From an uncultured Planctomycetia bacterium (lineage in GTDB: Bacteria > Planctomycetota > GCA-002687715 > DRQF01): a stretch of DNA of 64,000 nt. The DNA lies in assembly GCA_964559135.1 (NCBI GenBank), contig CAZLGG010000001.1:72163-136162 (forward strand). The letters run 5' to 3'. Shown here in pieces: positions 3-22,667 of the stretch. How positions within the stretch are numbered: the stretch's first letter is position 1; each line of letters starts with the position of its first letter. A model generated the notes under the pieces. The model was not told where the DNA came from. It saw only the letters and a list, made by a program, of their open reading frames with translations, and searched no databases. The position numbers and the translations under genes were made by a program.

Positions 3-1853
3 CTCCTGGGCCCGCCTTTTCGCGGACAGAGTCTCGGATTACGGCTGTATCTGTCTCGTGCCGTGGACGTCGGCGTGGAGTGGCAGGGTGGAGAACGAGA
101 GGAAATCCTCGCGGTCAAGGAGGTGTCGATTCGTCTCGAATCCGCCCAATTCTTTTCCACCGTCCCGAGTCTCGGGCTTGTTCTGGGAGATCGAGGTCGG
201 CATGTGGCGGATGTCCTTTCCACCCGCGGCGGTCGCCTGGGCTCGGCCAATTGGCTTTTCCATGCCTCCGATCAGTTCGTCCCTCTCGTGTCCATGGACC
301 CCATCAGTTTCCCGGATTCTCATCTCGCGTTGGACGGGGTTCCTCTCATCTTTTGGTTTGACCCCGAACCCGGCGCGTGGCAGAACCCCGCACAAGCGGA
401 TGCCCTCATGGATTGGGTCCGATTCGGCGGGATTCTGGTCATCTTCACGGCCGACCGAGCGGATCGTCTGCGCGACCCGAGCCTCACGCCCTTCCTCCCC
501 GTCCATTCGGCGGCGGTGGGCGTCATGGCCTACCCGAGGTTGCGATCCGCCTCCAGGGTCGATCCGGGACGCGGGCCGGTCCTCCGGGGGGCTCTGCGCG
601 CCGACGCCGTGTGGAAGAGTGCCGCGTCACGATTCGAGAAAGGGACGACCGCCGACGTGGGGCTTGGTCGGTACGAGTGGAGCGTCGGGCGGGGACGGAT
701 CGTTCTTGCGAACTTCGACCCTTTGAACTGGGACCAGGGAGACGGGACGGCTCTCGCCTGGGCCCTGGCCTCCTCGGCCGGAATCGCGGTCCGGAACGGA
801 AGCGTGCGAACGGGAGGTTACGTCGGTCGAAGGAGCGTTGCCTTCGCCGCCCCGATGCTCGACGGCGTGCTGCAGAATGGCAACATCCTCGCTCCCAACG
901 TCGGACTCTTCGTCTTCCTGGGCCTCGTGTTCGTCGTTCTGATCGGACCCGTCGACTACATGGTCCTCAAACGGCGGGGCAAGCTGCATTGGAGCCCGAT
1001 CACGCTTCTCGTTTACTCTGCACTCTTCTCAGGGGGGGCATTCCTCGCAACCATGCTGCTCTTCGCTCCCGATGAGGAGGTCAATCGCGTGGTCGTCCTC
1101 GATCTTTTGCAGGACGAACAAGGTCGGGAGCTGGCCGAAGGATACCTTTACCAGGGTGTCTATGAACCCCTCGGCGCCACCGTGCCTTGCGATGTGCCCG
1201 CCTGGCGCATCTATGGGCTGACCGCGACCGGCAACGAGTTCAATCGGCTGGGGGGATCCGGTCGGCAGGTTTGGGACGGCGCGGGAAGACAATTTCCCGT
1301 CATGGAGATCCCGTTCAACGGTTTCCGATTGTCGGGAAATCGTATTTCGGGAGAGGTGTCCGAGACCGTGACGTGTCGGTGGGAACGGCAAGAGGACGGA
1401 TCCTTCGGCCTCGTGGTCCACAACGGTTTCGGGAACGCTCTGGAGAACATGCGTGTCGTCAAGGACGGGAAGCTGTACCTTTTTCGGGGCACCCTGAGGG
1501 CCGGCGAATCCAAGACGTTCGCTCTGGTGAGGGCTCGCGACATCCGGGGCGGGAATCTCGCCGTGCTCAGGGGCTCATCGCAGCGCGATGCGTTGGAATT
1601 GAGCCACGCGGCTCGAGTGCTCCTTCGAACGATGAGTCGTCGAGTGACGGATTCGGCGGACGACCGACATCGGTATCGTCGCAATGTCAGCCCGCCTTTC
1701 CCCTGGGTCAGCCCGCCCGGCGGCGAGACGGGGGATGCGTTTTTTCTGGCGTCCACGACGGCGCCTCCGTTCGAAGACGCTTTGGTCGGAAGGCGTCATG
1801 GTTTCGATCTGGTCATCGTGAGGCGACGGGTTCCCTCTCGAAATTCGGAGTGA
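3..1853 (+). CDS. Hypothetical membrane protein, likely 5'-partial. First gene of the ABC/MoxR operon.
   Basis: Long ORF in frame with GTG at 63. The frame has no stop back to position 3, so the gene probably starts upstream of the window. One strongly hydrophobic segment (LFVFLGLVFVVLIGPV...LLVYSALFSGGAFLATMLLF) mid-protein. No family assignable by eye. A GldG-like ABC auxiliary role is only a guess from context. Confidence 0.5.
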   Translation, partial: LLGPPFRGQSLGLRLYLSRAVDVGVEWQGGEREEILAVKEVSIRLESAQFFSTVPSLGLVLGDRGRHVADVLSTRGGRLGSANWLFHASDQFVPLVSMDPISFPDSHLALDGVPLIFWFDPEPGAWQNPAQADALMDWVRFGGILVIFTADRADRLRDPSLTPFLPVHSAAVGVMAYPRLRSASRVDPGRGPVLRGALRADAVWKSAASRFEKGTTADVGLGRYEWSVGRGRIVLANFDPLNWDQGDGTALAWALASSAGIAVRNGSVRTGGYVGRRSVAFAAPMLDGVLQNGNILAPNVGLFVFLGLVFVVLIGPVDYMVLKRRGKLHWSPITLLVYSALFSGGAFLATMLLFAPDEEVNRVVVLDLLQDEQGRELAEGYLYQGVYEPLGATVPCDVPAWRIYGLTATGNEFNRLGGSGRQVWDGAGRQFPVMEIPFNGFRLSGNRISGEVSETVTCRWERQEDGSFGLVVHNGFGNALENMRVVKDGKLYLFRGTLRAGESKTFALVRARDIRGGNLAVLRGSSQRDALELSHAARVLLRTMSRRVTDSADDRHRYRRNVSPPFPWVSPPGGETGDAFFLASTTAPPFEDALVGRRHGFDLVIVRRRVPSRNSE

Positions 1854-1857
1854 GTGG

Positions 1858-2832
1858 ATGACTGCGATTCTCGAATGTCGTCATTTGAGCAAGTCCTACG
1901 GCAGACTTCGCGCCGTCGATGACTTCACGGTCACCGTCGAGGCCGGAGAGATCCTCGGTTTCGTGGGCCCGAATGGCGCCGGAAAATCGACGGCCCTCAA
2001 GATGATCGCCACGATCTTGAAGCCCTCGAGTGGTGACGCGCTCGTCTGCGGGTACTCGATACGTAGGGATCCCCAGGAAGTCCGCCGACGGATCGGATAC
2101 ATGCCCGACGTCTGCGGTCTCTATGAAACCCTTACGGTCGAGGAATACCTGAGCTTCTTCGCTTCCGTCTACAAGATCTACGGGGAAGCGCGCAAGAGAA
2201 TCGTCAGAGAAGTCCTGGAGCTCACGGGTCTGGAATCGAAGTCGGCCGCCCGCTGCGGCGCCCTATCGCGTGGGATGTCCCAGCGTTTGCACCTCGCACG
2301 TGTCCTCATCCATGATCCGTTTCTCTTGCTCCTGGACGAGCCCGCTTCGGGGCTCGATCCCCGCGCCCGGGTCGAGTTGAGGGAACTCCTCACCACCCTC
2401 AAGGACATGGGGAAGAGCATCATCATCTCCAGCCACATTCTGTCGGAGCTGGGTGAGATGTGCGACACCGTGGCCATGATCGAGACGTCCAAACTCGTCT
2501 ACGTGGGGCACGTGGACGACGCGGGGCGCGGCATGGCGCATGAGGGCAGGGTCTACCGGTTGAGGTTGAGCGCGGCCGAAGCGACACAAGGCGTTCAGGG
2601 CGGCTCGCGAGCGGATCTCGTGGAATTGCTCAAGGGAATTCGCGGAGTCGACGGGGTTCGGGATGGCGAAGACGAGCAGACGCTGTTGCTCCGTCTCCTC
2701 CCGAGCGAGGCCCGTCCCCACGCGATCCTGAAGTCTCTTCTCGACCGGGGTTTTCCCATCGAGGAGTTCGCATCGGAGCGTTTGGGTCTCGAGGACGCTT
2801 TTCTTCATCTCACCACCGGAAAAGTCCAATGA
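1858..2832 (+). CDS. ABC transporter ATP-binding protein, ABC-2 type, with a ~90-aa C-terminal extension (DUF4162-like)
   Basis: Walker A GPNGAGKST, ABC signature LSRGMSQRL, Walker B LLLLDEP, H-loop SSHIL. Starts 4 nt after the previous stop. Confidence 0.9.
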   Translation: MTAILECRHLSKSYGRLRAVDDFTVTVEAGEILGFVGPNGAGKSTALKMIATILKPSSGDALVCGYSIRRDPQEVRRRIGYMPDVCGLYETLTVEEYLSFFASVYKIYGEARKRIVREVLELTGLESKSAARCGALSRGMSQRLHLARVLIHDPFLLLLDEPASGLDPRARVELRELLTTLKDMGKSIIISSHILSELGEMCDTVAMIETSKLVYVGHVDDAGRGMAHEGRVYRLRLSAAEATQGVQGGSRADLVELLKGIRGVDGVRDGEDEQTLLLRLLPSEARPHAILKSLLDRGFPIEEFASERLGLEDAFLHLTTGKVQ

Positions 2833-4514
2833 AGGCGATCTTCCGGCAGGAATTCATCCTTTACGCCCAGAGCAAGGCGTTTTTCTGGTTGAGATCCGGG
2901 GCCTTCGCCTTGCCCCTGCTTCTTTCGACGGCTGGAATGTCGGAGGCGAGGACACCCGACGAAAAAGGGTATGTCCTTTTCATCACCACTTACCTCTCCC
3001 TGATTGCGGTCGTCTTGTTCATGGGGCCCGCGCTCTTGGCCCCGGTCATCGCCGAGGAGCGAAAGAACAATCGTCTCGACGTGCTGCGCAGTGCCCCCGT
3101 CGGGAGCTGGGGAATCGTGTTCGGCAAATGGTCGGCCCGCGGCGCATCGCTTGGCGCCGTCGTGCTCGCCGTCATGCCCTTGGCGGCGACGGCGCTCCTG
3201 TTCGGCGGTGTCGCGCCCGGGCAATTCCTCGAGGGTGCCGCGATCACCTTGGCCACGCTGTTCTGGGTCACCGCGTGCGCATTCTGGATCGGGAGTATCG
3301 TTCGAGACCCGTCGTCGTCGGCTCGGATCGGCATCGTGGCGGTTCTTCTTTTCGGAAGTGTGACAGCTCTCGGTCTGGCCGCGGGTGAGATCTATCGGGA
3401 ATTGACCGGGTCTTCGTCGTGGGCCGTCTCGACGGGGGGAAACCTTTTGGCCTTCCTCAATCCTTTCGTCGTGTTTGTCAACGTCTTCGAACCCCTACCG
3501 ATGAGCTTCGCGGTCTCGAGTGTGACCGGCCTGAGTCCCCTTGCGTTCTATGCCGGTGCATCGACGGCGGCGGGGGCGGGTTTCCTCGTGCTGGCTCGCC
3601 GCGCGATCGGCCGCGAACCCAGGACCTCGGCAGGGAAACGAAGGATGCCGTGGCGTCGTCCCGAATCGAAGACGGCCTTGGCGAAGATCTGGATCTTGGA
3701 CTCGCATCCTCTGGTGTGGCTGGACGGGATGCTGTCCGGCCGGGGGAAAGGAGGGCTTCTGCGGAGAGTGTTCTTTCTCGTCGCGGTCGTCGGCGGTGAG
3801 ATCCTTTTCGCGAGTCTCTATTCCACGATTCGAGACAGACGGTTTCGCCCGGACGAGATTCTCGTCCTCCATGCCTTTGCCGCCGGCATCGCGCTGTTCT
3901 TGGCTTTCGTCTCGGTGGCCAGTGTGGGGGCGACCGTGTTTCACCGGGACAGCGAAGCCCGATCCTTGGAGGTCCTCCACGCCGCACCTCTCGACACGCG
4001 TTCGATGGTGATGGAACGGATGGGCGTCGTCTTGCGGGCCGGAGGCCTCTATTGGTTCCTCAGCGTTCTGCATGTCGTCTTCGGTTGCGCCGCGGGGGAT
4101 CTCGCCCCCTGGGTGCTGCCCATGTACGTCACCTACTCGGGGATTCTCGTCTTCGCCTTGGCCGTTTTCGCCGCTGCCGTCTCTTTGCACCGGGAATCGG
4201 CCCGTAAATCCGTGCTCTGGGTCTTCGGCAGCATGGTGGCGTTCACGGTGGTCCTGCCGATTTTTCTGGGTCTCATGGTTTCCGGCAAGAGTGTGAACGA
4301 AGTCGGCGTTCTGCTCTTGTTGGGCCATCATCCTTATCTGATCGCGATGGACCCCTTTGTCCTTGCCTCCCTGTCTGACCTTCGAAATGACATGGACTGG
4401 GTGATCGCACCTTTCATCTACCTGGCGCAGTATGCTCTCGTAGCCGGCTATCTGTGGAGAAACATGTCGAGGCAATACGCGAAGAGGCGAGCGGCGAATT
4501 GGGAATTGAAATGA
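2829..4514 (+). CDS. ABC-2 family transporter permease, large multi-TM protein (561 aa)
   Basis: ATGA start/stop overlap with the ATPase gene. Hydrophobic helices throughout (e.g. AFALPLLLSTAG, LIAVVLFMGPALLAPVIA, VFFLVAVVGGEILFASLY). Confidence 0.8.
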   Translation: MKAIFRQEFILYAQSKAFFWLRSGAFALPLLLSTAGMSEARTPDEKGYVLFITTYLSLIAVVLFMGPALLAPVIAEERKNNRLDVLRSAPVGSWGIVFGKWSARGASLGAVVLAVMPLAATALLFGGVAPGQFLEGAAITLATLFWVTACAFWIGSIVRDPSSSARIGIVAVLLFGSVTALGLAAGEIYRELTGSSSWAVSTGGNLLAFLNPFVVFVNVFEPLPMSFAVSSVTGLSPLAFYAGASTAAGAGFLVLARRAIGREPRTSAGKRRMPWRRPESKTALAKIWILDSHPLVWLDGMLSGRGKGGLLRRVFFLVAVVGGEILFASLYSTIRDRRFRPDEILVLHAFAAGIALFLAFVSVASVGATVFHRDSEARSLEVLHAAPLDTRSMVMERMGVVLRAGGLYWFLSVLHVVFGCAAGDLAPWVLPMYVTYSGILVFALAVFAAAVSLHRESARKSVLWVFGSMVAFTVVLPIFLGLMVSGKSVNEVGVLLLLGHHPYLIAMDPFVLASLSDLRNDMDWVIAPFIYLAQYALVAGYLWRNMSRQYAKRRAANWELK

Positions 4515-6178
4515 CGTATGCGGACCTGCATCGCCGCGCCGCGGCCCGGATTCTACGCGGCCGCGCGTGGGATCGATCGACTCGGGGATTGTTTTGGGGA
4601 GCAGCCTTAGGGAGTCTGTTGTCCGTCGTTCACGCCTTCATGGGGTGGCCCATATTCTGGCCCCTCGTATTCGCGCCTCTGAGCGCGCTGGCGGGCGGCG
4701 CCGTCGCCCTGTGGCGAGGCCGTCCGACACGAGACCATGTCGCCCACGAATTGGATCGTCGTCTCGGCTGGAAGGAAGCCGCGCTCACGGAGTCCTGGTT
4801 GGCGGCTCGTGGTGCGTATGAAGAGTCCGACGAAAGCTTGGCTCCCCTGGTGAGCGAAACTCTGGAGGGCAAGCTCCAGGCGATCACTCCCCGCAAACTG
4901 AGAGACGTTTTCCCTCTTCCGAGACGTGGCCGCCGCGTGACGGCGGCTGTCGTTTTCCTGGCGATCGCCGCGGTCGTGTCGCCCGGAATCCCTTCCCTTC
5001 GCGCCGACGACCCGGCCGCGCGGAGGGGCAAGCAACAAGCCGCAGCGCGCCGCAAGGAAGACGCCGCCGCTCGGAAACTCGTGGCCAAAGTCAAGAAGGC
5101 AGCGAGCGAGCTGGAGAGGCTGGCCGCGCAACGCAAGTGGAAGAAACTGCTTTCTGCCGCCAAGGCTTTGAAGACCCGAGCGGTGGGGTTGGAGAAGCGA
5201 TTCCCCGGGGCGATCCGTGCAAAAGTGCGGATGGAAGCATGGTCGAAGGAAGCGGCCAAGGCGATCACGGACGCAATGGACGGTCCTGGCGGCACGGGTC
5301 GCGGTCGGGGGGCAGCCAAGTGCTCTGAAGATGTCGAGGAGATGACCGCCATGGCCCGGGCACTGGAATCCCTGGGCCTCGAGAGCTTGGCCGGCGACTT
5401 GGAAAATGCCGCTCGCGACCTCCGAGAGTTTGCCGACGGTCAGCGAGACGCGGGGGAGATCGAGGAGCATCGCGGTGACCTCGATGCACGTCGTCTCGAG
5501 GACCTGAAGGAACGCTTGGAGAGCGCCGCGCGCCGACTGGAAGATCTACGGAAACTGCTGGACGCCCATCCCGAGTTGAAGAGTCTCCTCGGTGGACTCA
5601 CTCGAGAACAATCGGAGAAGCTGAAGGAGATCGTCAAGGAGTTGGACCGTCTGCTCGCGGGCATCGAAGCTGATCCCTCCGGCACGATGCCGACCCCGGA
5701 GGAATTGCAACGACTGGCGAAGCTGATGAAGGACCTCTCGGTCGATGACCTCCAACGAATTCTCGACACGCTTCGGGAGCTGGAGGCCCTCCAAGCCCTG
5801 GAAAACCTGGCCGATGCGGCCGCATCCGGGGCGCCGCTGCCGTCCTTGGAGTCGCTGCTTCAGGGGATCTCATCCGGGATGGGGCCGGGGATGGGAAGCG
5901 GGGCTCCGCGTCCCAAGGCGGAGACGGCCAACACCGAGGCGAAGACGGAGCACCTACGCGGCTCTCTCGACCCCGAGGGGCAGGTGATCCGGAGACAACG
6001 ATTCCGGGGACTCCCGCGAACGGCGACCTCGAAGGAGGAGTTGGATCGCTTGGCGAAACTTGTGGAGGGGGCCCAGGAGGGAGTGATCCGCCGGGGGCTT
6101 TCTCCGTCCGCTCGTCCGTGGGTCAAGCGCTACTTTGAGGCCCTGCGAGCGGCGTCACATGGCGGGGACAAGCATTGA
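4511..6178 (+). CDS. Uncharacterised membrane-anchored coiled-coil protein
   Basis: ATG at 4511 overlaps the permease stop (ATGA). The ORF frame opens at 4454, but translational coupling favours 4511. Two N-terminal TM helices (WGAALGSLLSVVHAFMGWPIFWPLVFAPLSALAGGAVALW) and a third (VTAAVVFLAIAAVVSPGI). The rest is long and charged, with Lys/Arg/Glu/Ala-rich heptad-like stretches (AARRKEDAAARKLVAKVKKAASELERLAAQRKWKKLL...). Confidence 0.6.
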   Translation: MTYADLHRRAAARILRGRAWDRSTRGLFWGAALGSLLSVVHAFMGWPIFWPLVFAPLSALAGGAVALWRGRPTRDHVAHELDRRLGWKEAALTESWLAARGAYEESDESLAPLVSETLEGKLQAITPRKLRDVFPLPRRGRRVTAAVVFLAIAAVVSPGIPSLRADDPAARRGKQQAAARRKEDAAARKLVAKVKKAASELERLAAQRKWKKLLSAAKALKTRAVGLEKRFPGAIRAKVRMEAWSKEAAKAITDAMDGPGGTGRGRGAAKCSEDVEEMTAMARALESLGLESLAGDLENAARDLREFADGQRDAGEIEEHRGDLDARRLEDLKERLESAARRLEDLRKLLDAHPELKSLLGGLTREQSEKLKEIVKELDRLLAGIEADPSGTMPTPEELQRLAKLMKDLSVDDLQRILDTLRELEALQALENLADAAASGAPLPSLESLLQGISSGMGPGMGSGAPRPKAETANTEAKTEHLRGSLDPEGQVIRRQRFRGLPRTATSKEELDRLAKLVEGAQEGVIRRGLSPSARPWVKRYFEALRAASHGGDKH

Positions 6179-8949
6179 ATTGGGTCTTTCCGGCATGGCT
6201 TTTCCTTCTCGTCGTTCCCCTCGCGCTCATGGTTTGGGCAGTCCTCGTGCGACGTCGTCTGGGCCGTCGCCGTTTCGTCTCATTGATCCTTCGATCGTTC
6301 GCCTTGGCGGCGCTCGTCGCGGCGATCGCCCGTCCTCGACTCGTCGATACGGTCGAGGACTTGGGGCTCGTCTTCGTCCTCGATGTCTCCAAGAGTGTTC
6401 CCGTCGAGGCGAGAGATGACGGTTTGCGTTGGGCTCTCTCCGAGATGGCGAAAGGCAAAGGGAACGACCGTGCGGCGCTCGTCGTCTTCGGGTCCAATCC
6501 CGCCGTCGAGATTCCGTTTTCGGCGCCCCCCAAGGAGCCAGGGAGCGATTCCGAGGCCGGCCCCCTCCTCGAACTCGAGAGCCGCGTCGATCTCCAGGAG
6601 ACGGATATCGCCGAGGCCTTGGCCCTGGCTCGCTCCCTCGTCCCCGAGGAGTTGGCGGCCCGTGTCGTTCTCATCTCCGACGGCAACGCGACCCGTGGGG
6701 AGACCGATCTCGCGATTCGCGAATTGGGCTCATCCGGAGTGAGTGTCGATGTCCGTCCCCTCCACTACGTGCATGACGACGAAGTCATGGTGCAAAGTCT
6801 CGAGGCATCGCCGCGCACCCATGTCGACGAACCTCTCGAGCTGGTTCTCGTGGTTCGTGCCCTCGGCGAGGGTGCGGCCACGGCCCAGGTCTTCGAGGAT
6901 GGTCGCCCCGTGAGCGAACCGGTGAGGCTGCGCGTTCGCTCCGGAGACCAGGCCTACCGCTTCGTCGTGGCGCCCCCCGAGCCGGGATTCCACACCTACC
7001 AAGTGCGTCTCAACCCGGACCGGGACGGCAACCGCCGCAACAACGTCGGGCGGTGCGGTGTCGTCGTGCAAGGTCGTTCGTCCGTCGCGGTCGTGTCGTC
7101 CTCCGATCACGACCAGCGTCTCACGGGAGTCTTCCGGAAATCCGGGCTCGACGTCGCCCATGTCTCGGCCTCCAACCTCCCTCGCCACCCGGCGGATTGG
7201 ATCGGTCGCGGCGCGGTCGTACTCGACGATCTGCCGGCCTGGGACATGGATCGGGAGCAGATGCTGGCCCTTGCCGTGGCCGTGAAGGATTTGGGAATGG
7301 GGTTGTTGGTCGTCGGCGGGCCCACTTCGTTCGCCCCGGGCGGCTATCGGGGGACGCCCCTCGAGCCCGTTTTCCCGGTTCGCCTGGACGTCCTCAACGA
7401 GAAGCTCACCCCCAAGGGCGCTCTCGTCGTCGTGTTGCACAGCGTTGAGTTCGATCAGGGCAACACGTGGGCCGAGCGAATCTGCGAGACGGCTTTGAAA
7501 TCCCTCTCACCCCGTGACGAGATGGGAATCGTCTACTTCGATCCCTCCCAGGGCGAGCGCTGGCTGTTCAACCTCGGTCCGGTGGGCGATGGCGCGGCGC
7601 AGAAACAACTCATCCGAAACGTCACGGTGGGGGACATGCCGTCCTTCCACAAGTGTTTTCTGCTCGCTCTCAAATCGTTGGCTCGAAGTCGGGCATCGGT
7701 CAAGCACGTCGTCGTGATCTCGGACGGCGATCCACAGGCGCCGTCCCCTCAGGTTCTTCAGACCCTGAAGACAATGAAGGTCACCGTCTCCGGTGTGGCC
7801 GTCGCACCTCACGGCCTCAATGTTCTCGAGGACTTGGCAACTTGCGGAGGCGGCCGCTACATCCAACTCGATCGCAGTTCGGCGGACCTTGCGAGGATTC
7901 CCCGCTTCATCGTTCGTGAAGCCTCCAGGATCCGGCGGCCCAGCGTCGAGGAAAAGCCGTTCACACCCCTCGTCTCTCTGCCGGGCTCGATCCTGATTCG
8001 GGGAATCGATTCGGGATTCCCCCGGCTCCTCGGGCACGTCGTGACGTCGGCCCGCGCCGAGGCCGACACGGTCCTCTTGGCCGACGAGAAAAGGGGCGAC
8101 CCTCTCTTGGCGACATGGAATTTCGGCCTGGGGAGGGTGACCGCCTTCACCTCCGATGCCACGTCGCGGTGGTCCAAGGAATGGCTCTCCTGGGACGGAT
8201 TCACCCGATTCTGGACCCGACAGATTCGAGCGGTCCTCCCCGCGTCCGAGGGCAGTGGATTCCCCCTGCGTGCCACGTGGAGCGGTTCGCGTCTCGATCT
8301 CGAAATGGAAGCCGAAGACGGGCAGGGGCGCCCGCTGACGGCCTTGGAACCGCGCGTCGCTCTTCTCCGGGAGGGTGGGGCATCACGGGACATTTCCCTC
8401 GTGCAATCCGAGCCTGGCCGCTATGTCGCGTCCGTCGCGGTTGTCGAACCCGGGGACTACCTCGCCCGCGCCCGGTACGACGTCGAAGGAAAGCGACGGG
8501 TGAGTCTGGCCGCGGCCTCTTTGTCTTTCGGGCCGGAGGACAGGAGTCTTCGCAGCGCCGATGACAAGCTCGCCTATTGGGCATCTCTCGCCGGCGGCAT
8601 CGACCTCTCTTCGGGGGGAGACCCCTGGCGTCACGACATGGTGAGCGTCCGATCCCGCCGGGAACTGTGGCGAGACCTCCTCGTCGCAGGTCTCCTGCTC
8701 ATGCTGCTCGACGTGGGAACGCGGCGCATCCAGCTCGGCCGGACACCTCGTGCCGTGAGATCCGCGCCGTCCGCGGCCTCGCCGCGCCGGGCACGCGAAT
8801 CTCGAGCCCCGCCTCTCCCCGAGGCGGAACCCGAGGCCGAACCCTCGAAGGATGAGGTCGTGACCGATCCGGCGGCGACCGAAGAACAACGCATGCGCGC
8901 TCTCAAGTCCGCGAAGAGGCGGGCGCGCAGAAGACAGGAGTGGCAATGA
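6175..8949 (+). CDS. Large BatA-like membrane protein with VWA domain(s) (924 aa)
   Basis: ATGA overlap with the previous gene. BatA_N-type N-terminus (MNWVFPAWLFLLVVPLALMVWAVLVRRRL). VWA/MIDAS-like DxSxS motif (VFVLDVSKSV). A second VWA-like block (ALVVVLHSVEFDQGNTW...HVVVISDGDP). A late TM segment (LLVAGLLLMLLDVG). Pro/Arg/Glu-rich C-terminal tail. Confidence 0.75.
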   Translation: MNWVFPAWLFLLVVPLALMVWAVLVRRRLGRRRFVSLILRSFALAALVAAIARPRLVDTVEDLGLVFVLDVSKSVPVEARDDGLRWALSEMAKGKGNDRAALVVFGSNPAVEIPFSAPPKEPGSDSEAGPLLELESRVDLQETDIAEALALARSLVPEELAARVVLISDGNATRGETDLAIRELGSSGVSVDVRPLHYVHDDEVMVQSLEASPRTHVDEPLELVLVVRALGEGAATAQVFEDGRPVSEPVRLRVRSGDQAYRFVVAPPEPGFHTYQVRLNPDRDGNRRNNVGRCGVVVQGRSSVAVVSSSDHDQRLTGVFRKSGLDVAHVSASNLPRHPADWIGRGAVVLDDLPAWDMDREQMLALAVAVKDLGMGLLVVGGPTSFAPGGYRGTPLEPVFPVRLDVLNEKLTPKGALVVVLHSVEFDQGNTWAERICETALKSLSPRDEMGIVYFDPSQGERWLFNLGPVGDGAAQKQLIRNVTVGDMPSFHKCFLLALKSLARSRASVKHVVVISDGDPQAPSPQVLQTLKTMKVTVSGVAVAPHGLNVLEDLATCGGGRYIQLDRSSADLARIPRFIVREASRIRRPSVEEKPFTPLVSLPGSILIRGIDSGFPRLLGHVVTSARAEADTVLLADEKRGDPLLATWNFGLGRVTAFTSDATSRWSKEWLSWDGFTRFWTRQIRAVLPASEGSGFPLRATWSGSRLDLEMEAEDGQGRPLTALEPRVALLREGGASRDISLVQSEPGRYVASVAVVEPGDYLARARYDVEGKRRVSLAAASLSFGPEDRSLRSADDKLAYWASLAGGIDLSSGGDPWRHDMVSVRSRRELWRDLLVAGLLLMLLDVGTRRIQLGRTPRAVRSAPSAASPRRARESRAPPLPEAEPEAEPSKDEVVTDPAATEEQRMRALKSAKRRARRRQEWQ

Positions 8950-9941
8950 TGGATGCGGTTCTCGAAGAGTTTCCTCGACGGTTCCAGGCCCTGAAGGAAG
9001 CGGTTGGTCAGGTCATGGTGGGGCAGGCGAACGTCGTCGACCTCGTCTTGACGGCTCTTTTCTCCGACGGGCACTGCCTTTTGGAAGGCTTGCCCGGGCT
9101 GGGAAAGACGCAGCTCGTCAAGACCCTTTCGGAAGCGTTGGGACTGAAGTTCTCGCGTATCCAGTTCACGCCGGATCTCATGCCCGCGGATGTGACGGGA
9201 ACAAACATCATCGAGGAGGACGAGAACGGGAGGAAGCGCTACGCGTTCCGCAAGGGCCCTATTTTCTCGCAGCTCGTCCTCGCGGATGAGATCAATCGGG
9301 CCACGCCGAAAACGCAGTCAGCTCTGCTGGAAGCCATGCAGGAGCGGACCGTCACGTCCTGGGGAGAAACCCGTCCCATCGAGCGGCCCCTTCTCGTCTT
9401 GGCGACGCAGAACCCCATCGAAATGGAGGGGACCTACCCGTTGCCGGAGGCCCAGCTCGACCGCTTTCTCTTCAAGGTCCTCGTACCCAGACCGAACAGG
9501 TCGGAATTGGTGGAGATCGTGGAACGGAGCACGCGCAGTCGAGCGCCGCGGGCGGAGGCGGTCATGGACCGGGATGAACTCCTACGGTGGCAATCGACGG
9601 TTCGCGACGTGGCGGCGGCGCCGCAGGTTCTGGATTTTGCGGCCCGTCTCGTCGAGGCAAGCCATCCCACGGGCGCCGGTGCCCCGGAACTCGTGGACCG
9701 CTACGTGCGTTTCGGCGCCAGCCCCCGTGCAGCCCAGAGTCTCGTGTTGGCGGGAAAGGTGAGGGCGCTCGCCGACGGCAGGCCGCAGCTCGCCTACATG
9801 GATCTCCGCTGGGCAGCCACCGCGGTCTTCCGCCATCGCCTCGTCTTGGGCTACGAGGCCCAGGTGGATGACGTCACCCCGGACACGATCACCGCGGCCC
9901 TTCTCGAAGCCGTTCCCGATCTCGCCGAGGACGCGGCATGA
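8946..9941 (+). CDS. MoxR-family AAA+ ATPase
   Basis: Walker A GLPGLGKT, then the MoxR-typical block LVKTLSEALGLKFSRIQFTPDLMPADVTGT. ATG at 8946 overlaps the upstream stop (ATGA); the ORF track starts at GTG 8940. Confidence 0.9.
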   Translation: MMDAVLEEFPRRFQALKEAVGQVMVGQANVVDLVLTALFSDGHCLLEGLPGLGKTQLVKTLSEALGLKFSRIQFTPDLMPADVTGTNIIEEDENGRKRYAFRKGPIFSQLVLADEINRATPKTQSALLEAMQERTVTSWGETRPIERPLLVLATQNPIEMEGTYPLPEAQLDRFLFKVLVPRPNRSELVEIVERSTRSRAPRAEAVMDRDELLRWQSTVRDVAAAPQVLDFAARLVEASHPTGAGAPELVDRYVRFGASPRAAQSLVLAGKVRALADGRPQLAYMDLRWAATAVFRHRLVLGYEAQVDDVTPDTITAALLEAVPDLAEDAA

Positions 9942-10816
9942 CGGCGGTGTTGGGGGGAGATTTGAGGGCGAGGTTGGCCCGGCTCGACTTCGTCTTGCGT
10001 CGTTCGCTGACCGGGACCCTGCGAGGGGACCGGCGTGCGCCCAGACGAAAGGGGATCAGCCTCGAGTTTGCGGACTTCCGCGCCTACGCCCCCGGTGACG
10101 ACGTGCGGCATCTCGATTGGGCGAGCCTGGCCCGGCTCGATCAACTTCTCATTCGGCTGTACCACGATGAGGAGGAGCTGAATCTGAACCTGGTGATCGA
10201 CATGAGTCGGTCCATGGCCTACGGGACGCCCCCGAAGCGGGAGCTGGCCATCGGTCTCGCCGCGGCGCTCGCCTGGATCGGGAGGATTCGGGGACATCGC
10301 GTGGAGACCTGGCTTCTCGGAGAGGAGTTGGAACATGCCGAACCCGGCGCGTCGGCGGGAGCCTTCGAGGCTTTCCTCGATCGCCTGGAGGCCATGCCCG
10401 CGACGTCGACCCGTCCCCTCATCGAACACCTCGACCAACTTCGTCTGCGAACCCGACTGCGGGGACTCACGGTCCTGATTTCGGACCTCTTCGAGCCCGC
10501 CGGGCCTCGCGCCGTGCTGAAGCGACTCCTGGGACCACGTAGGTCCCTCGACATCCTCCAGATCCTGGCGCCCGAAGAATTGGAGCCCGATCTTGAGGGC
10601 GATCTCCTTCTCGAAGACATGGAAACCGGGGAAGCGGTCGAGATCACATGGACCAAGGCTTTGGCGGAGATCTATCGACGTCGTCTGACCGGTCATCTTG
10701 CGTCTTGGGCGGAGGCCGCGCGTCGCCGGGGGGCGGCCTGGACGCACCTCAGCTCGAGGCTCACCCTGGAGGACGCCGTTCTGAACGAGTTGGCGCCGAA
10801 AGGGTGGCTCGCATGA
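9938..10816 (+). CDS. DUF58-family protein (MoxR-associated)
   Basis: ATGA overlap with MoxR. Hallmark motif FADFRAYAPGDDVRHLDWASLARLDQLLIRLY. Confidence 0.85.
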   Translation: MTAVLGGDLRARLARLDFVLRRSLTGTLRGDRRAPRRKGISLEFADFRAYAPGDDVRHLDWASLARLDQLLIRLYHDEEELNLNLVIDMSRSMAYGTPPKRELAIGLAAALAWIGRIRGHRVETWLLGEELEHAEPGASAGAFEAFLDRLEAMPATSTRPLIEHLDQLRLRTRLRGLTVLISDLFEPAGPRAVLKRLLGPRRSLDILQILAPEELEPDLEGDLLLEDMETGEAVEITWTKALAEIYRRRLTGHLASWAEAARRRGAAWTHLSSRLTLEDAVLNELAPKGWLA

Positions 10817-12732
10817 CCGCCGCCCTCCCCTTGGCTGTCGCGTTTTCTCACCCTCAGCAGCTCTGGTGGCTCCTGAGCCTCTTCCCGCTCATCATGCTTT
10901 TTTTGATGAAACGCCGTCGGCGGGAACACCAGGTCGGCAGTGTCATGCTCTGGCAGGCGCTGTTGAAGGAGGATGTCGTCCAAAGTCCGTTCCGGGTTCC
11001 CAGGGAGTGGTTGAGCCTGCTGCTTCTCGTCCTGGCCGTCCTGGGTCTCGGCTTGTCCCTGGGAGGCCTCCGCTGGGGGAGCACTCGGCAACCCGGGAGC
11101 CTCACGGCCATCGTGCTGGACGCGAGCGCCACCATGGCCTCCCGCGACGGTGATGCGACGCGATTCGAAAGGGCGCGGAATCTCGCGCGGGACGAATTGG
11201 ACGCGGCCGGCGACGACGTGGGCGTGATCGTCATTCTTGCAGGCGCGGAGCCCCTCTTGCTGGGAGATTCCCGCGACGATCCGGCCCTTCTCCGCAGCCG
11301 ACTCGCCGCTGCGCAGCCGGAGCCCAGATCGAGTGATCTTCTTCAGGCGATGGACCGGGCCGTCGGCTTGTTGTCCGAAGGGAGGAACCAAGGGGCGGCC
11401 GCGACGGAACTCCGTGTTCTCTCCGACTTCGCGGGGGGAAGTCCGGACATGGGGGGATTGGACACCGGGGGCGTGAACGTGAAGCTCGTCGCGTTGGGAG
11501 ATCCTCGACCGAATCGCGGCATCGTCGGCCTGTCCCTGGGAGGGCGGAGCGACGTGAAGCGTCTCGTCGTGCGCGTGTCGGCGAATGCCATGGCTTCCGG
11601 AAAGGTCATCGTTTCCCTCTATCGCGACGACCTCCTTCAGGCCGCACGCGAGGTGGAACTCGAGCCAAGCAAATCGAAGACCGTGCTTTTCCCGATCGAG
11701 CTCGAACCAGGCGCCGAGGCATCCCGTTTTCGTCTGCGTCTGAGCGGTGAGGATGTCTTGTCCCTCGATGATGAGGTGATCTTCGGTGTCGCCCGGGCGC
11801 CCTCGCCCCGCATCCTCGTTCTGGGGGAAGCCTCTCCCTATCTCGCGGCTCTCGGGAGCGTCTTTCCTGAGTTGGACATCGTGCGCGCATCCAGCGAAGC
11901 GGAATTGCCTCCCGGAACGTCGTCCTTCGATCTCATGATCACGACGAGGGCATGGACGGCGAAGGAGCCGCCTCCTGCTCGTCGCGTGTTCTGGTGGGGC
12001 GTCGTCCCGGACGGGCTCATCGAGCGAGGGGACGCCTTGCAGCCCGTGGTCTTGGGTGTGGAGCGGGGAGACCCCGTTCTGCGGCAAGTCGATCTGGGTG
12101 ACCTCGTCGTGTTGCGTCAGCACCGCGTCGAGATCCCCGGCTCGGCCCGCAGACTCGTGAGGACGGATGCCGGTTCCCAGTTTTTCGCCTTCTCGAGACA
12201 GGGGCGTCGGCACTTCGTGTGGGCGAGCCCACCCACCGACAGCAACTTGGCCCTCCTTCCCGCGTTTCCTCTTCTCGTTCGCAACTTGCTCGCGGACCGC
12301 CTCCGGGGCCTCGAGTTGTGGAGCTTTGCGGGCGGTGAGCCGGTGCGTTTTTCGGCTGGGTTGGGGCGGCTGTTGGGGGAGGTGGACCTGCACGTCACGG
12401 GGCCGGAAGGAATGGACATTCGCCGCTCCCTGGAGGGCGGCGCACTCTGGGTGTTGGGGGAGCGCCCTCGGCTCGGGGCCTACACGGCTGAGGTCACACG
12501 GGAGGGGCGGCGCATGGTTCGTCCCTTCGGGGTCGGGCTTCTCGATGAGAGCCTCACGACGTCACGGCCGACGGCCTCCCCCGCCCTCGAAGCGCTGGCG
12601 AAGACCGCGCCCCGTGTCGCCGTGGAACGCGCCGGTTCCACCCCCGACGGGCGGCCTCTTTGGCGTCCGCTCGCCCTGTTCGCATTCCTCCTCCTCACCG
12701 CCGAGATTCTCTGGGCCCATTCCCGCCAATGA
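10813..12732 (+). CDS. BatA-like TM + VWA domain protein
   Basis: ATGA overlap with DUF58. The ORF-track start at 10648 is upstream Arg/Gly-rich noise. BatA_N-like N-terminus (LWWLLSLFPLIMLFLMKRRRREH), VWA motif (TAIVLDASATMASRDGD), C-terminal TM (LWRPLALFAFLLLTAEILW). Confidence 0.8.
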   Translation: MTAALPLAVAFSHPQQLWWLLSLFPLIMLFLMKRRRREHQVGSVMLWQALLKEDVVQSPFRVPREWLSLLLLVLAVLGLGLSLGGLRWGSTRQPGSLTAIVLDASATMASRDGDATRFERARNLARDELDAAGDDVGVIVILAGAEPLLLGDSRDDPALLRSRLAAAQPEPRSSDLLQAMDRAVGLLSEGRNQGAAATELRVLSDFAGGSPDMGGLDTGGVNVKLVALGDPRPNRGIVGLSLGGRSDVKRLVVRVSANAMASGKVIVSLYRDDLLQAAREVELEPSKSKTVLFPIELEPGAEASRFRLRLSGEDVLSLDDEVIFGVARAPSPRILVLGEASPYLAALGSVFPELDIVRASSEAELPPGTSSFDLMITTRAWTAKEPPPARRVFWWGVVPDGLIERGDALQPVVLGVERGDPVLRQVDLGDLVVLRQHRVEIPGSARRLVRTDAGSQFFAFSRQGRRHFVWASPPTDSNLALLPAFPLLVRNLLADRLRGLELWSFAGGEPVRFSAGLGRLLGEVDLHVTGPEGMDIRRSLEGGALWVLGERPRLGAYTAEVTREGRRMVRPFGVGLLDESLTTSRPTASPALEALAKTAPRVAVERAGSTPDGRPLWRPLALFAFLLLTAEILWAHSRQ

Positions 12733-12831: not shown

Positions 12832-15018
12832 TCAACGCCCGTGGGGCTGGGTGTCGGGGAGGGGGGCGCGGTCGCGGACGAAGCGGTCGAACCAGGTGCG
12901 AGTGAGCGCTCGAGCCTCGTCGCGCTTTTCGCTGAGCCCGTGGTCGGCGCCCTCGAAAAGGACGAAGCGCAGCGTGCGGTGGAGGGCTTGCAGCCCCTCG
13001 GCGAGTTCGAAGGCCGAGCCCGGCGGGACGCGCCAGTCCGCGCCACCCTGCATGAGAAGGATGGGCGTCGTCGGGCAAAGTCTCTCCGGCCAGCGTGCGG
13101 GCGATCGGGGCAGGAGGACGGCATCGCCCTCCTTGTCGTAGCCGGGAATGAGTTCCTCGTAGACCTCCTCGATGCCGGGACGATCCTTCTTCCAGCGGAT
13201 GAGGTCCGTGACCGGTCCCTCGAGGGCGAGAGCGCGGAAGCGATCGGTGCGGGAGACGGTGAGCAAGCTCATCATGCCTCCCCGGCTGGACCCGTAGAGG
13301 GCGATGCGATCGGAGTCGGCCTCGGGGAGAGCGTCGAGGAGCGGAAGAAGAGAGAGCACGTCGTTGACTTCGGCGCCGCCGAATTCCTCGAGGCCTTCGC
13401 CTCCGGCCACGCCCCGGTATTGGCTCGCCACAACCACGTAACCCCAGCGGGCCATGGGGAGGAGTCGGCCGAGAACGCGCTTCTCGTCCAGGGCTCCGAA
13501 TTCCCGGTTGCCGCCCCGGCAGTAGACGATGGCGGGATGGGGGCCGGACGCGTTCGGCGTCAACAGCCACCCCTTCACCCGGAGTCCATCGGAAAGATAG
13601 GTGATGCGCTCGATGCGCACTTCGTTCAGCCCCGCCACCGACCCCGCCTCCGCGGACGGCGTGAAGGCCTCTCTCTCCACGATCTTTCCGTCCTTGGGGA
13701 GGGTGAGCAGTTTCTCCCGGTCGAGGAGATGGCCCGCGAGAACGATCGTCGAGATGGACCGAATGGCGCGGATGTCCACACGCGGATCCTCGTCGAGAAC
13801 GAGAATGTCGGCACGACGGCCAGGACGCACCTCGCCCAATTCCTTCCAACCGAAGGCATCGGCGAAATTGCTCGTGGCCGCCGCCAACGCCTCGCGGGGT
13901 GAGAGTCCATAGCGCACGAGAGCATCCAACTCCCACACGAGGGAAATTCCAGGCATGGACCCCCAGACGTCGCAGCCGCTGCCGGCGAGGTACCGCGCCC
14001 CGGCGGCCCGATAGGCCTTCTCGACGATCTCCGTGGCCGCGGCGAGACGAGCGTAGGCCTCCACGTGAGCGGCGTCGTGGTCCTGTTTGCCCGTCTCCGG
14101 GTCGGCGGGTTGATTGATGTCTTTCGGATCGAGGAGGACAGCGGCGGGCTCCTTCCACGGGTTCTTGCTCCAGGGGTGGTGCAGGGCGAGGAGTCCGGCC
14201 GTGGGCAACAGATAGGTCTCGGAGTGCGCCAGGGACTTCGCATAGCGGGCGAGCCGGGGATTGTCGGGTCGGATGGCGGAGAGCCACTTGTACCACTGCC
14301 ACTTCGGGCTCGCGAGGTCGTCGCTGAAGGGCTCTTTCGCCACGCCGTGTCGGTGTTCCTCCGGCGCCATGCCGAGGGAGTAGCGGGTGGTGTGGACGAA
14401 GGCGTCCAGGCCGAAGTCCATGCCCTGCTCGTAGGTGGTGAGGGCCAGTTCACCGATGGTGGCCAGTCCGCGTTCGCGACAATGGTTCGCGACGCGTCGG
14501 AGTTTGTCGGGGGTCAGACGATACATGAGGAGAGCCACCCTTGCACCCTGATCGGCGACGGTGTCGATCCGTGCCAGGAGATCCTCGATGGGGGCAGGCT
14601 CGTAGCCCACGTCTTCCAGGGGATACAGATGGGGCGATGGTCGGGCGCGGGTGAACAGGGGCCCCCGTCGTCCCCCGGACACGGCGAGGATCGACGTCAC
14701 GCCGGAATACAAAAAGGCGTTGGCGTAGGCCTGGTTGTTGAGGACGGCGAAGCCGTCGATGAGGCCGGGGACGAGGTATTTCCCCGTCCCGTCCACGATA
14801 CGGAATCCATCGGGCACCGTGATGTGATTCTTCGGGCCCACGGCGGTGATGATGCCGTTCTCGACGAGGACGACCGCGTTCTCGATGTCCCGGGCGCTCT
14901 GCCCGCGGTCTGCTGTGTCGATGACGACGGCGCCGACGATCGCCAAGCGGTCCTGGGCTGGAAGGAACGTGGAGAGCAGGGCGAGGACGCACGCGAGGTT
15001 GAAGGCTGAATGTCTCAT
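12832..15018 (-). CDS. Secreted two-domain hydrolase: N-terminal amidohydrolase-family domain fused to a C-terminal S9 (prolyl-oligopeptidase/dienelactone-hydrolase-like) alpha/beta-hydrolase domain
   Basis: N-terminal signal peptide MRHSAFNLACVLALLSTFLPAQD. Amidohydrolase-like C-terminal motif (GRRADILVLDEDP). GxSxG nucleophile elbow (YGSSRGGMMS), with downstream Asp (GGADWRVP) and His (GADHGL). Confidence 0.75.
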   Translation of the reverse strand: MRHSAFNLACVLALLSTFLPAQDRLAIVGAVVIDTADRGQSARDIENAVVLVENGIITAVGPKNHITVPDGFRIVDGTGKYLVPGLIDGFAVLNNQAYANAFLYSGVTSILAVSGGRRGPLFTRARPSPHLYPLEDVGYEPAPIEDLLARIDTVADQGARVALLMYRLTPDKLRRVANHCRERGLATIGELALTTYEQGMDFGLDAFVHTTRYSLGMAPEEHRHGVAKEPFSDDLASPKWQWYKWLSAIRPDNPRLARYAKSLAHSETYLLPTAGLLALHHPWSKNPWKEPAAVLLDPKDINQPADPETGKQDHDAAHVEAYARLAAATEIVEKAYRAAGARYLAGSGCDVWGSMPGISLVWELDALVRYGLSPREALAAATSNFADAFGWKELGEVRPGRRADILVLDEDPRVDIRAIRSISTIVLAGHLLDREKLLTLPKDGKIVEREAFTPSAEAGSVAGLNEVRIERITYLSDGLRVKGWLLTPNASGPHPAIVYCRGGNREFGALDEKRVLGRLLPMARWGYVVVASQYRGVAGGEGLEEFGGAEVNDVLSLLPLLDALPEADSDRIALYGSSRGGMMSLLTVSRTDRFRALALEGPVTDLIRWKKDRPGIEEVYEELIPGYDKEGDAVLLPRSPARWPERLCPTTPILLMQGGADWRVPPGSAFELAEGLQALHRTLRFVLFEGADHGLSEKRDEARALTRTWFDRFVRDRAPLPDTQPHGR

Positions 15019-22648: not shown

Positions 22649-22667
22649 GAATTGCCGTCCTTCCGAG

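Follow-up and report, generated by a model that had tools for sequence, protein, structure and literature searches.

An ABC-2 transporter gene set linked to a MoxR–DUF58–VWA module in an uncultured planctomycete and other lineages: a probable machine of the cell envelope

A 64,000-nucleotide stretch of DNA from an uncultured Planctomycetia bacterium (assembly GCA_964559135.1, contig CAZLGG010000001.1, positions 72,163 to 136,162 of the forward strand; 'the window' below) opens with eight consecutive open reading frames (ORFs), all on the + strand and together spanning positions 3..12732. We number them g1 to g8. The initial annotation, made from the sequence alone, read them as an operon that joins an ATP-binding cassette (ABC) exporter to a module of MoxR, DUF58 and proteins with von Willebrand factor A (VWA) domains, and both the ORF listing and direct translation agree with it on the number of genes and their strand. 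The association of the two modules recurs in other genomes, in three different gene orders.

The genes are tightly packed. A 4-nt gap separates g1 from g2 (1853/1858), as first reported, and each of the six later junctions is a 4-nt overlap of start and stop codons, at 2829, 4511, 6175, 8946, 9938 and 10813. All six had been given as ATGA; five are (2829, 4511, 8946, 9938 and 10813), but the overlap at 6175 is TTGA, and g5 begins on TTG. This start is credible because the N-terminus of g5 aligns residue for residue with those of 77 homologues—P6 is kept in 75 of the 77—and because the TTGA junction is also kept in a related locus, L007, that is 79–80% identical to the window in DNA sequence. 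'Obligate co-translation', as the overlaps were first interpreted, is too strong: they signify operon compaction and likely translational coupling, and nothing beyond. Terminator-like sites are not enriched inside the block (15 found, against 11.8 ± 4.0 expected in shuffles). Nor is the operon confined to eight genes and complete in the window. The window edge removes the 5' end of g1, which has no start within the window and is missing approximately 100 codons (616 of ~714 are present); its full-length orthologue in L007, P0125, is annotated as 714 amino acids (aa). There, an NHL-repeat gene (2435-3538) overlaps the start of g1 (3535) by ATGA, and for this reason we take the operon to comprise at least nine genes and to extend past the edge. 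At its 3' end lies a convergent, unrelated amidohydrolase/S9 peptidase gene, and after that DUF1570, ETF and other genes.

The first module is an ABC-2 type transporter, comprising an ATPase (g2), a duplicated permease (g3) and an accessory protein (g1). g2 (1858..2832, + strand) belongs to the DrrA/GldA/NodI-like, ABC-2 type group of ABC ATPases (ABC_tran, 98.6 bits, 5.8e-28) and aligns along its full length with the NCBIfam drrA model TIGR01188, at a score below the cut-off; GldA ranks second. A DUF4162-like tail had been proposed for it. The putative tail is DrrA-like, and the C-terminal domain itself, DrrA1-3_C (formerly DUF4162), scores 19.3 bits against a cut-off of 27.4. The same domain is present in the ATPases beside g1 homologues in two other loci, L088 and L089. 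g3 (2829..4514, + strand) is a permease of 561 aa with approximately 10 transmembrane (TM) segments, and matches ABC2_membrane_2 at 33.9 bits (cut-off 27.2) and ABC2_membrane_4 at 31.8 bits (cut-off 27). An ABC_tran ATPase paired with an ABC2_membrane family permease is what defines ABC-2 transporters, and on both genes the Pfam scores uphold the initial assignment. The N-terminal and C-terminal halves of g3 align with each other on an ER..L..L...P signature (hhalign 90%, E 1.5e-6), and because the halves are homologous we regard g3 as a fused pair of permease domains that arose by tandem duplication.

The accessory protein, g1 (3..1853, + strand), recognized as a membrane protein from its ORF and its TM segments, consists of a beta-sandwich, an alpha/beta ectodomain that is DUF4350-like and class I glutamine amidotransferase (GATase1)-like, a TM hairpin and, at the C-terminus, a part rich in beta structure. 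No Pfam family matches it above threshold. DUF4350, one of the families that the initial annotation suggested searching for, gives 15.1 bits in g1, under the gathering score, and weak matches in 6 of 11 members of the g1 family, the best of them (1.3e-5) again sub-threshold. Two others so suggested, ABC_transp_aux and DUF4340, are found in none of the eight products by Pfam, and neither GldG (TIGR03521) nor ABC_transp_aux matches the window's g1 or the 11 family members at E <= 0.1. A profile search of the PDB returned marginal matches only (E 0.2-0.4). The alpha/beta domain does, however, match g5, over the first half of its GATase1-like domain (hhalign 95.3%, E 2e-8). Genes of the g1 family invariably adjoin an ABC ATPase gene, and because of this constant company we consider g1 analogous to the GldG-type accessory subunits of ABC-2 transporters: GldG-like by analogy, that is, and not of the GldG family.

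Between the two modules lies g4 (4511..6178, + strand), a coiled-coil membrane protein to which family consensus and topology counts assign three TM segments. Approximately 350 of its residues form charged helix or coiled coil; it also has a linker rich in Gly, and at the C-terminus the motif P..YR..VR.YF..L is conserved. It belongs to no Pfam, NCBIfam or PDB family, its only matches being of coiled-coil type, and Pfam searches with 30 diverse members of its family, together with a PDB profile search, likewise returned coiled-coil noise only. The family is nevertheless sizeable, with 326 representative clusters in a library of 1.8 billion proteins. In four loci (L020:6189-7973, L022:7281-8984, L023:923-2578 and L028:4105-5823) the homologue is divided between two ORFs, one of ~430 aa for the N-terminal TM/coiled-coil part and another for the C-terminal part, and the representative library also holds stand-alone proteins of 140-190 aa that match the C-terminal domain of g4 only.

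The second module comprises a MoxR ATPase (g6) and a DUF58 protein (g7), both cytoplasmic, together with two paralogous, double-anchored membrane proteins, g5 and g8. g6 (8946..9941, + strand) is an AAA+ ATPase of the AAA_3 type (206.9 bits, cut-off 27; 1.1e-61) with an AAA_lid_2 domain (41.8 bits, cut-off 22.7; 8.8e-11). The bpMoxR model also matches above its cut-off (42.3 bits against 27; 5.6e-11), but AAA_3 fits far better. Its Walker A motif (G47-T54, GLPGLGKT) and Walker B motif (D113-E114) are kept in 48 of 48 family members. g7 (9938..10816, + strand) has the VWA-like fold of DUF58 (PF01882; 111.8 bits, cut-off 23.4; 3.5e-32), the usual partner of MoxR, and is placed in the cytoplasm because it has no TM segment. 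Its DxSxS metal ion-dependent adhesion site (MIDAS) is intact, with D, S and S kept in 49-50 of 50 members, and its SD motif is conserved in 50 of 50. Both scores stand well above the Pfam cut-offs, and MoxR and DUF58 are thus what they were first said to be. The start of g7 overlaps the stop of g6, and an adjacent DUF58 gene is the mark by which Snider and Houry, as cited in PMC12067865, recognize the MRP subfamily of MoxR (AAA_3). In L007, approximately 600 bases (L007:13767-14367) that have no counterpart at window 9930-9941 lie between the MoxR and DUF58 genes; the stop of the MoxR gene still has its ATGA overlap despite this insert.

The largest protein of the cluster is g5 (6175..8949, + strand), 924 aa long, double-anchored in the membrane, and with two VWA domains rather than one. 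Pfam recognizes VWA_2 (65-170), VWA (448-568) and GATase1_like (605-683). From the N-terminus the chain runs from a BatA_N-like TM hairpin through VWA1 and a beta-sandwich into a GATase1-like domain that is interrupted by VWA2 (the insert occupies residues ~358-603); after this come two beta-sandwiches, a C-terminal TM segment, a disordered stretch of acidic residues and a terminal helix that is basic. An AlphaFold2 model (predicted local distance difference test score, pLDDT, 82.6) matches VWA proteins in Foldseek, among them BatB (3ibs) and 4jdu, and, for the GATase1-like domain, STM3548 (2gk3; TM-score 0.72). The MIDAS of VWA1 is complete (D70, S72, S74, T143 and D169, all invariant or nearly so), whereas that of VWA2 is degenerate and lacks DxSxS, although D517/G518 remain invariant. 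We also considered g5 as a catalytic class I glutamine amidotransferase. No Cys or His is invariant in sets of 26 or 77 homologues, and the domain is therefore not an amidotransferase; its fold resembles the non-enzymatic STM3548 structure, and the Foldseek matches (VWA, the non-catalytic GATase1-like domain, beta-sandwiches) include no catalytic fold.

g8 (10813..12732, + strand) has a BatA_N TM hairpin and a VWA domain; a beta-sandwich follows, then what is probably a GATase1-like domain, and the last element is a C-terminal TM segment. Its BatA match (8.9e-6; 26.5 bits, cut-off 25.9) and its VWA_2 match (1.3e-7) both pass their cut-offs, in keeping with its initial description as a BatA_N–VWA protein, and its MIDAS is intact (DxSxT in the window, DxSxS in 50 of 52 relatives). 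The same description had been given to g5, where the VWA part holds twice over but BatA_N stays sub-threshold (E 0.06), and the assignment depends instead on profile–profile homology to g8. This homology is extensive: hhalign gives 99.6% from the TM hairpin through the VWA domain to the beta-sandwich (residues 1-357/9-384) and 88% for the C-terminal part (604-849/419-634). By these profile comparisons the two proteins are paralogues, g5 being equivalent to g8 with a second VWA domain inserted.

How these proteins sit in the membrane was predicted from the positive-inside rule, by counting the K and R residues that border TM segments in each family. The counts predict that the large parts of both g5 and g8 lie outside the cytoplasm, as does g4's helical region, and that hairpin loops and C-terminal tails lie inside it, the TM1-TM2 loops and the tails after the last anchor being rich in K and R. 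The VWA domain of the BatA-type protein BB0173 is periplasmic by experiment (PMC5700661), and the orientation predicted here agrees with that topology. The initial annotation supposed that MoxR 'loads' the VWA proteins. Periplasmic VWA domains, if the prediction is right, would be out of direct reach of a cytoplasmic MoxR, and the supposition does not survive in that form.

Conservation of the linkage was assessed with g5, the central and largest gene, as anchor. A word-indexed search found 137 clusters of the g5 family, and the family has at least 592 genome matches; an exact-sequence look-up of the window's own g5 returned no record. From these we analyzed 80 species-level loci with 10-kb flanks, to which six further loci, fetched by exact-protein look-up, were added; ORFs were assigned to the eight families by phmmer and hmmsearch. 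Word-index searches with g4 and g1 gave 4 and 8 proteins, and families for these two were built from the fetched loci instead. Many contigs or flanks end early, and all counts over the 80 loci are lower bounds. MoxR, DUF58 and g8 accompany g5 in 44 loci; g4 is present in 33, adjoining the MoxR module; and g1 in 23, in 22 of which the MoxR module is present, too.

Among these 22 loci there are three gene orders and five phylum labels. The order of the window, g1-g2-g3-g4-g5-g6-g7-g8, recurs in L007 (whose g5 protein is 86% identical) and, with one extra gene, in L001 (g5 45% identical); the extra gene encodes 473 aa and has no relatives in the locus set. A second order, g1-g2-g3-g4-g6-g7-g8-g5, occurs in 13 loci labelled Chloroflexota, in one Rubrobacter metagenome-assembled genome (MAG), and in L005/L006. 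The third, g4-(NHL)-g5-g6-g7-g8-g1-g2-g3, is found in MAGs of Planctomycetota, Hydrogenedentota and Nitrospirales. In all three the modules are contiguous and co-directional, with junctions that overlap or are a few bases apart, and this among lineages whose 924-aa proteins share only ~30% identity. Other arrangements exist. In Verrucomicrobiota, g4-MoxR-DUF58-g8 is followed after ~3 kb by g5; and in a Thermomicrobiales MAG (L080:3-9854), g1-g2-g3 diverge from g4-DUF58-g8-g5, with no MoxR detected between g4 and DUF58. The neighbourhood comparison that the initial annotation called for thus turns out in its favor as to recurrence. Its view of exporter and MoxR/VWA proteins as one unit fares less simply: they are linked beyond the level of chance neighbours, but the linkage, though real, is facultative and not universal.

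A recurrent additional neighbour is a beta-propeller. An NHL propeller gene lies directly 5' of g5 in 51 of the 80 loci, and where it stands alone its product carries a lipoprotein-like signal sequence. In lineages that lack the ABC-2 set, other ABC parts lie next to g5, some of them fused to the propeller. In Verrucomicrobiota and some Phycisphaerae the propeller forms the C-terminus of a 12-TM BPD_transp_1 permease, encoded after a solute-binding protein gene; such pairs, with permease–NHL proteins of ~805 aa, are seen between g8 or g4 and g5 at L011:6572-9980 and L060:6515-9920, and also in L013, L069, L027 and L079. In several Planctomycetes the propeller is joined through a single TM segment to an ABC_tran ATPase, directly 5' of g5; fusions of this kind, 627-789 aa long, are encoded at L029:7305-9671, L038:7813-9693, L036:7833-9737 and L021:374-2356. 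An ABC ATPase tethered across the membrane to a periplasmic propeller is an unusual, non-standard architecture. Other loci have an ABC_membrane/ABC_tran half-transporter after g5, and L029 has an importer-like set upstream and g1 downstream. Because non-orthologous ABC machinery recurs at the g5 cluster, the case for a functional ABC link is strengthened; because the kinds of ABC machinery vary, the simple notion that an exporter supplies a substrate is weakened. Clustering of the unassigned ORFs of the 80 loci turned up no recurrent partner beyond the NHL and solute-binding protein families; the remaining clusters are an antisense shadow ORF of the NHL gene and blocks of lineage-restricted synteny. 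In L007 the NHL-repeat gene and, before it, a gene for an AlgX-like SGNH-domain protein (PF16822, 4.6e-17) precede g1 (L007:1516-3538), and none of the other 85 loci has an equivalent of the AlgX-like gene.

What might such a cluster do? As the gene set recurs across lineages in different orders, it probably encodes an uncharacterised machine of the cell envelope and is not a chance neighbourhood. The modules also appear to share ancestry, since the GATase1-like half-domain of g1 matches g5, and g5 and g8 are paralogues. That the products form a single inner-membrane/periplasmic complex with two ATP-driven modules seems to us about an even bet. In such a complex, g1, g4, g5 and g8, with the propeller, would make up a scaffold in the periplasm whose MIDAS sites bind a ligand of the envelope. 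MoxR and DUF58 would act from the cytoplasm on short loops and tails, assembling the scaffold or switching it; the MIDAS of DUF58 may take hold of the acidic tail at the C-terminus of g5, and the switching would be formally like the inside-out activation of integrins. The ABC module, through g1, might either deliver a substrate to the scaffold or transmit ATP-driven movement to it, as a mechanotransducer. By analogy with Bat-type operons, RL3499-3502 and Arc2 (see below), the role is likely to be the assembly or maintenance of the envelope, and a secretion function is possible. The boldest version—a previously unrecognised envelope machine, encoded by the cluster and, in other lineages, its NHL-propeller and alternative ABC partners, in which MoxR–DUF58 and the ABC ATPase both drive one periplasmic scaffold of integrin-like, double-anchored proteins with MIDAS sites—we offer tentatively, and think rather unlikely as it stands.

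Several points weigh against the idea of one complex. Half of the loci with a MoxR module (22 of 44) have no g1 in the retrieved stretch: in Isosphaeraceae-like loci, and in many others of Planctomycetota, the series g5-MoxR-DUF58-g8 is not followed by g1. Two Pirellulaceae loci, conversely, have g1 and an ABC ATPase with no MoxR within 10 kb. Independent lineages for the second gene order may be fewer than they look, since MAG labels are not fully reliable: L005/L006, labelled Candidatus Polarisedimenticolia (Acidobacteriota), share more than 10 syntenic downstream genes with L057, L063, L070 and other Limnocylindria/Chloroflexota-labelled loci, and one of the labels, theirs or that of the Limnocylindria loci, is probably wrong. 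The DUF4350 matches of g1, being sub-threshold, are weak, and g1 could not be modelled (pLDDT 45 from a 9-sequence alignment). That a cytoplasmic AAA+ ATPase acts on mostly periplasmic proteins is something we purely infer. And no conserved enzyme gene in the 80 loci points to a ligand or substrate.

The absences just listed are also what would be expected if an ordinary ABC-2 exporter, which has an accessory protein of its own and moves some unrelated lipid, glycan or drug, and a Bat-like envelope module were two independent neighbouring systems, co-transcribed in this lineage without coupling, and the divergent transcription of the modules in L080 and the sheer abundance of ABC transporters, among the commonest of bacterial genes, lend themselves to the same explanation. 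We think it an unlikely one, because three gene orders keep the modules contiguous, co-directional and overlapping at ~30% protein identity, because the g1 family in the g5-anchored set is nearly always found with the MoxR module (22/23), because g1 and g5 have a domain in common, and because different ABC parts, some fused to the NHL propeller, replace the ABC-2 transporter at the same position. The modules might instead constitute a novel apparatus for secretion of protein or polymer, or for surface assembly, in which the ABC-2 transporter moves cargo through the inner membrane, the scaffold passes it on or anchors it in the envelope, and MoxR assembles the whole. Such an apparatus would follow the prediction of Makarova et al. 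(2015) for the archaeal DUF4350 system, and would suit the membrane or ectodomain nature of most components, the long helical stalk of g4 with its predicted extracytoplasmic position, the relatedness of DUF4350 to GldG given in PMC5898192, and the AlgX-like, polysaccharide-modifying gene just upstream in L007. That gene is confined to L007, however; the 80 loci show no recurrent, conserved gene for a cargo, an outer-membrane channel or a glycosyltransferase; and the neighbouring ABC parts are, in many lineages, of importer type (solute-binding protein, BPD_transp_1). Such an apparatus is, we judge, quite unlikely.

The propeller brings to mind the sensors of threats or signals across the envelope, of the MoxR–vWA–beta-propeller kind (Kaur et al. 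2020; the Esr pathway, 2026), in which propeller and VWA domains would detect a ligand, MoxR–DUF58 would transduce the signal, and the ABC module would be the output. Beta-propeller surface sensors that act through MoxR–vWA have experimental support in Actinomycetales (bioRxiv 10.64898/2026.09.08.750141), the bpMoxR score of g6 exceeds its cut-off, and the NHL gene stands 5' of g5 in most loci and of g1 in L007. Yet AAA_3 is much the better match for g6; Pfam finds no effector, kinase, FHA or VMAP-type domain; the propeller is an NHL lipoprotein and not an effector-linked WD40; Kaur et al. (PMC7159879) make no mention of ABC, NHL or DUF58; and the locus resembles a widespread housekeeping cluster rather than a variable defence island. 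We rate a sensor as distinctly improbable. Anti-phage defence, considered as a candidate in its own right, was rejected: PADLOC found nothing specific, only generic P-loop matches. Characterised MoxR–VWA pairs often mature metalloenzymes, and the cluster might on that precedent be a chaperone for metal-cofactor insertion or enzyme maturation (like NorQ/NorD, CoxD/CoxE or CbbQ/CbbO) that activates a single, specific enzyme and to which the ABC module supplies metal; solute-binding protein and permease genes of Fe(III)/thiamine type do flank g5 in relatives. No conserved target enzyme lies in or beside any of the 80 loci, though, prediction puts the MIDAS-bearing VWA domains of g5 and g8 outside the cytoplasm, and g6 is of the DUF58-linked AAA_3 type and not the NorQ or CbbQ type. 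This last explanation strikes us as very improbable, and a single envelope complex remains the one that we prefer.

Some other genes of the window may be recorded here. The convergent neighbour of g8 (12835-15018, - strand) encodes a product of 728 aa with an amidohydrolase region (~323-419) and a C-terminal prolyl-oligopeptidase S9 domain. Farther along, two tandem genes for unusually long signal-peptidase-I-like proteins of 549 and 502 aa (21002-24176, - strand), both with Peptidase_S26 in the N-terminal part only, are flanked by lepA (24176-26119) and an ABC ATPase gene (20253-21002).

To our knowledge, MoxR–DUF58–VWA operons are among the most widespread gene modules of bacteria and archaea that have no established substrate or mechanism; work on Bat operons, going on since 1999, has not yielded one. 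The rearrangement-resistant ABC link, the GATase1-like ectodomain common to g1 and the VWA proteins, and the NHL propeller, recurrent and in places fused to ABC parts, make this old question experimentally approachable, and open hypotheses about binding partners, about the membrane side on which each part lies, and about two separable ATPase activities. A single complex, if that is what the cluster encodes, would amount to an envelope machine of a new type, with many phylum labels among its carriers, including Planctomycetota, Verrucomicrobiota and Chloroflexota. Should the boldest version be true, it would represent a new class of system, for secretion, surface assembly or mechanotransduction, under many phylum labels, and MoxR–DUF58–VWA modules would gain a defined physical partner. 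The initial annotation knew of no named system with this architecture, and our literature search, which reached few subscription-journal papers, likewise found no description of the ABC-linked arrangement and no name for it.

Among known systems, the Bat (Bacteroides aerotolerance) operons (B. fragilis batI, Leptospira bat, Borrelia bb0170-bb0176) share with the cluster a MoxR of AAA_3 type, DUF58, VWA proteins anchored in the inner membrane by BatA_N, a single-operon layout, periplasmic MIDAS domains (predicted here), and an envelope-related, poorly defined function. g6, g7 and g8 correspond to this core of MoxR, DUF58 and BatA_N-anchored VWA protein, and the g5 model matches VWA structures of BatB (3ibs) and of a B. 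fragilis aerotolerance protein (4jdu). The TPR proteins (BatB/BatC), BatD and the SH3 protein (BatE) have no match in any of the eight products. Compared with their Bat counterparts, the VWA proteins of the window are 2-3 times larger, double-anchored, and furnished with GATase1-like and beta-sandwich domains, and the window has in addition an ABC-2 transporter, the DUF4350-like g1 and the coiled-coil g4.

Of published concepts the nearest is archaeal: the arCOG01314 (DUF4350)–MoxR–vWA complex, predicted in the relevant section of Makarova, Galperin and Koonin (2015; PMC5898192) to act in secretion or membrane remodelling, and there DUF4350 is related to GldG by HHpred. As described in that section, these systems combine a DUF4350/flavodoxin-like, GldG-related ectodomain protein with a COG0714 MoxR and vWA proteins, and are mostly membrane or extracellular; g6, with g7, g5 and g8, likewise brings MoxR and vWA together in one operon. 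The archaeal operons have Ig-like or S-layer proteins, and ABC genes go unmentioned in the section on them, whereas the window adds an ABC-2 ATPase and permease, BatA_N double anchors and a coiled-coil protein, its relatives add the propeller, and its own DUF4350 similarity lies under the Pfam threshold. GldA/GldF/GldG of Bacteroidota also share something with the cluster, namely an ABC-2 ATPase, a permease and a large GATase1-like/flavodoxin-like accessory membrane protein. The initial annotation had pointed to a GldA/GldF-type resemblance, but the matches fall far below the equivalog cut-offs—219.8 bits for g2 with GldA (TIGR03522; cut-off 402.6) and 22.6 bits for g3 with GldF (TIGR03518; cut-off 288.5), its sole NCBIfam match—and, as noted for g1, GldG and ABC_transp_aux are missing. 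The permease here is duplicated, moreover, other gld genes are absent, and gliding is not known from the host lineages.

Phenotypes related to the envelope are on record for MoxR/VWA clusters (PMC5700661, PMC8926400). Mutants in RL3499-RL3502 of R. leguminosarum, a broadly conserved MoxR–DUF58 operon with two membrane proteins, have defects in cell envelope and morphology, as summarised in PMC5700661; the operon is alphaproteobacterial, has four genes and is not reported to include an ABC transporter, and its membrane proteins are likened to g5/g8 by gene content only. Arc2 of P. aeruginosa (PA4317-PA4323), encoding an AAA+ ATPase that resembles MoxR, along with a VWF-domain protein, protects the envelope against the toxin ColA (Ting et al. 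2022; PMC8926400); its other genes are phospholipid-synthesis-like, no ABC-2 transporter is described, and the comparison is at the level of MoxR/VWA only. Both the Esr pathway and the ternary conflict systems that Kaur et al. described (2020; PMC7159879) share with the cluster MoxR, a vWA-fold partner and a propeller (NHL in the relatives of the window), but the cluster differs from them in its AAA_3/DUF58-type MoxR and periplasmic NHL lipoprotein, and in having no effector, VMAP, kinase or FHA and no PADLOC match. Set against all of these, what appears to be new is a conserved ABC link added to known MoxR–DUF58–VWA envelope modules, and it joins three threads that have been treated apart: the GldG-like accessory proteins of ABC transporters, the archaeal DUF4350–MoxR prediction and the envelope phenotypes of Bat-type operons.

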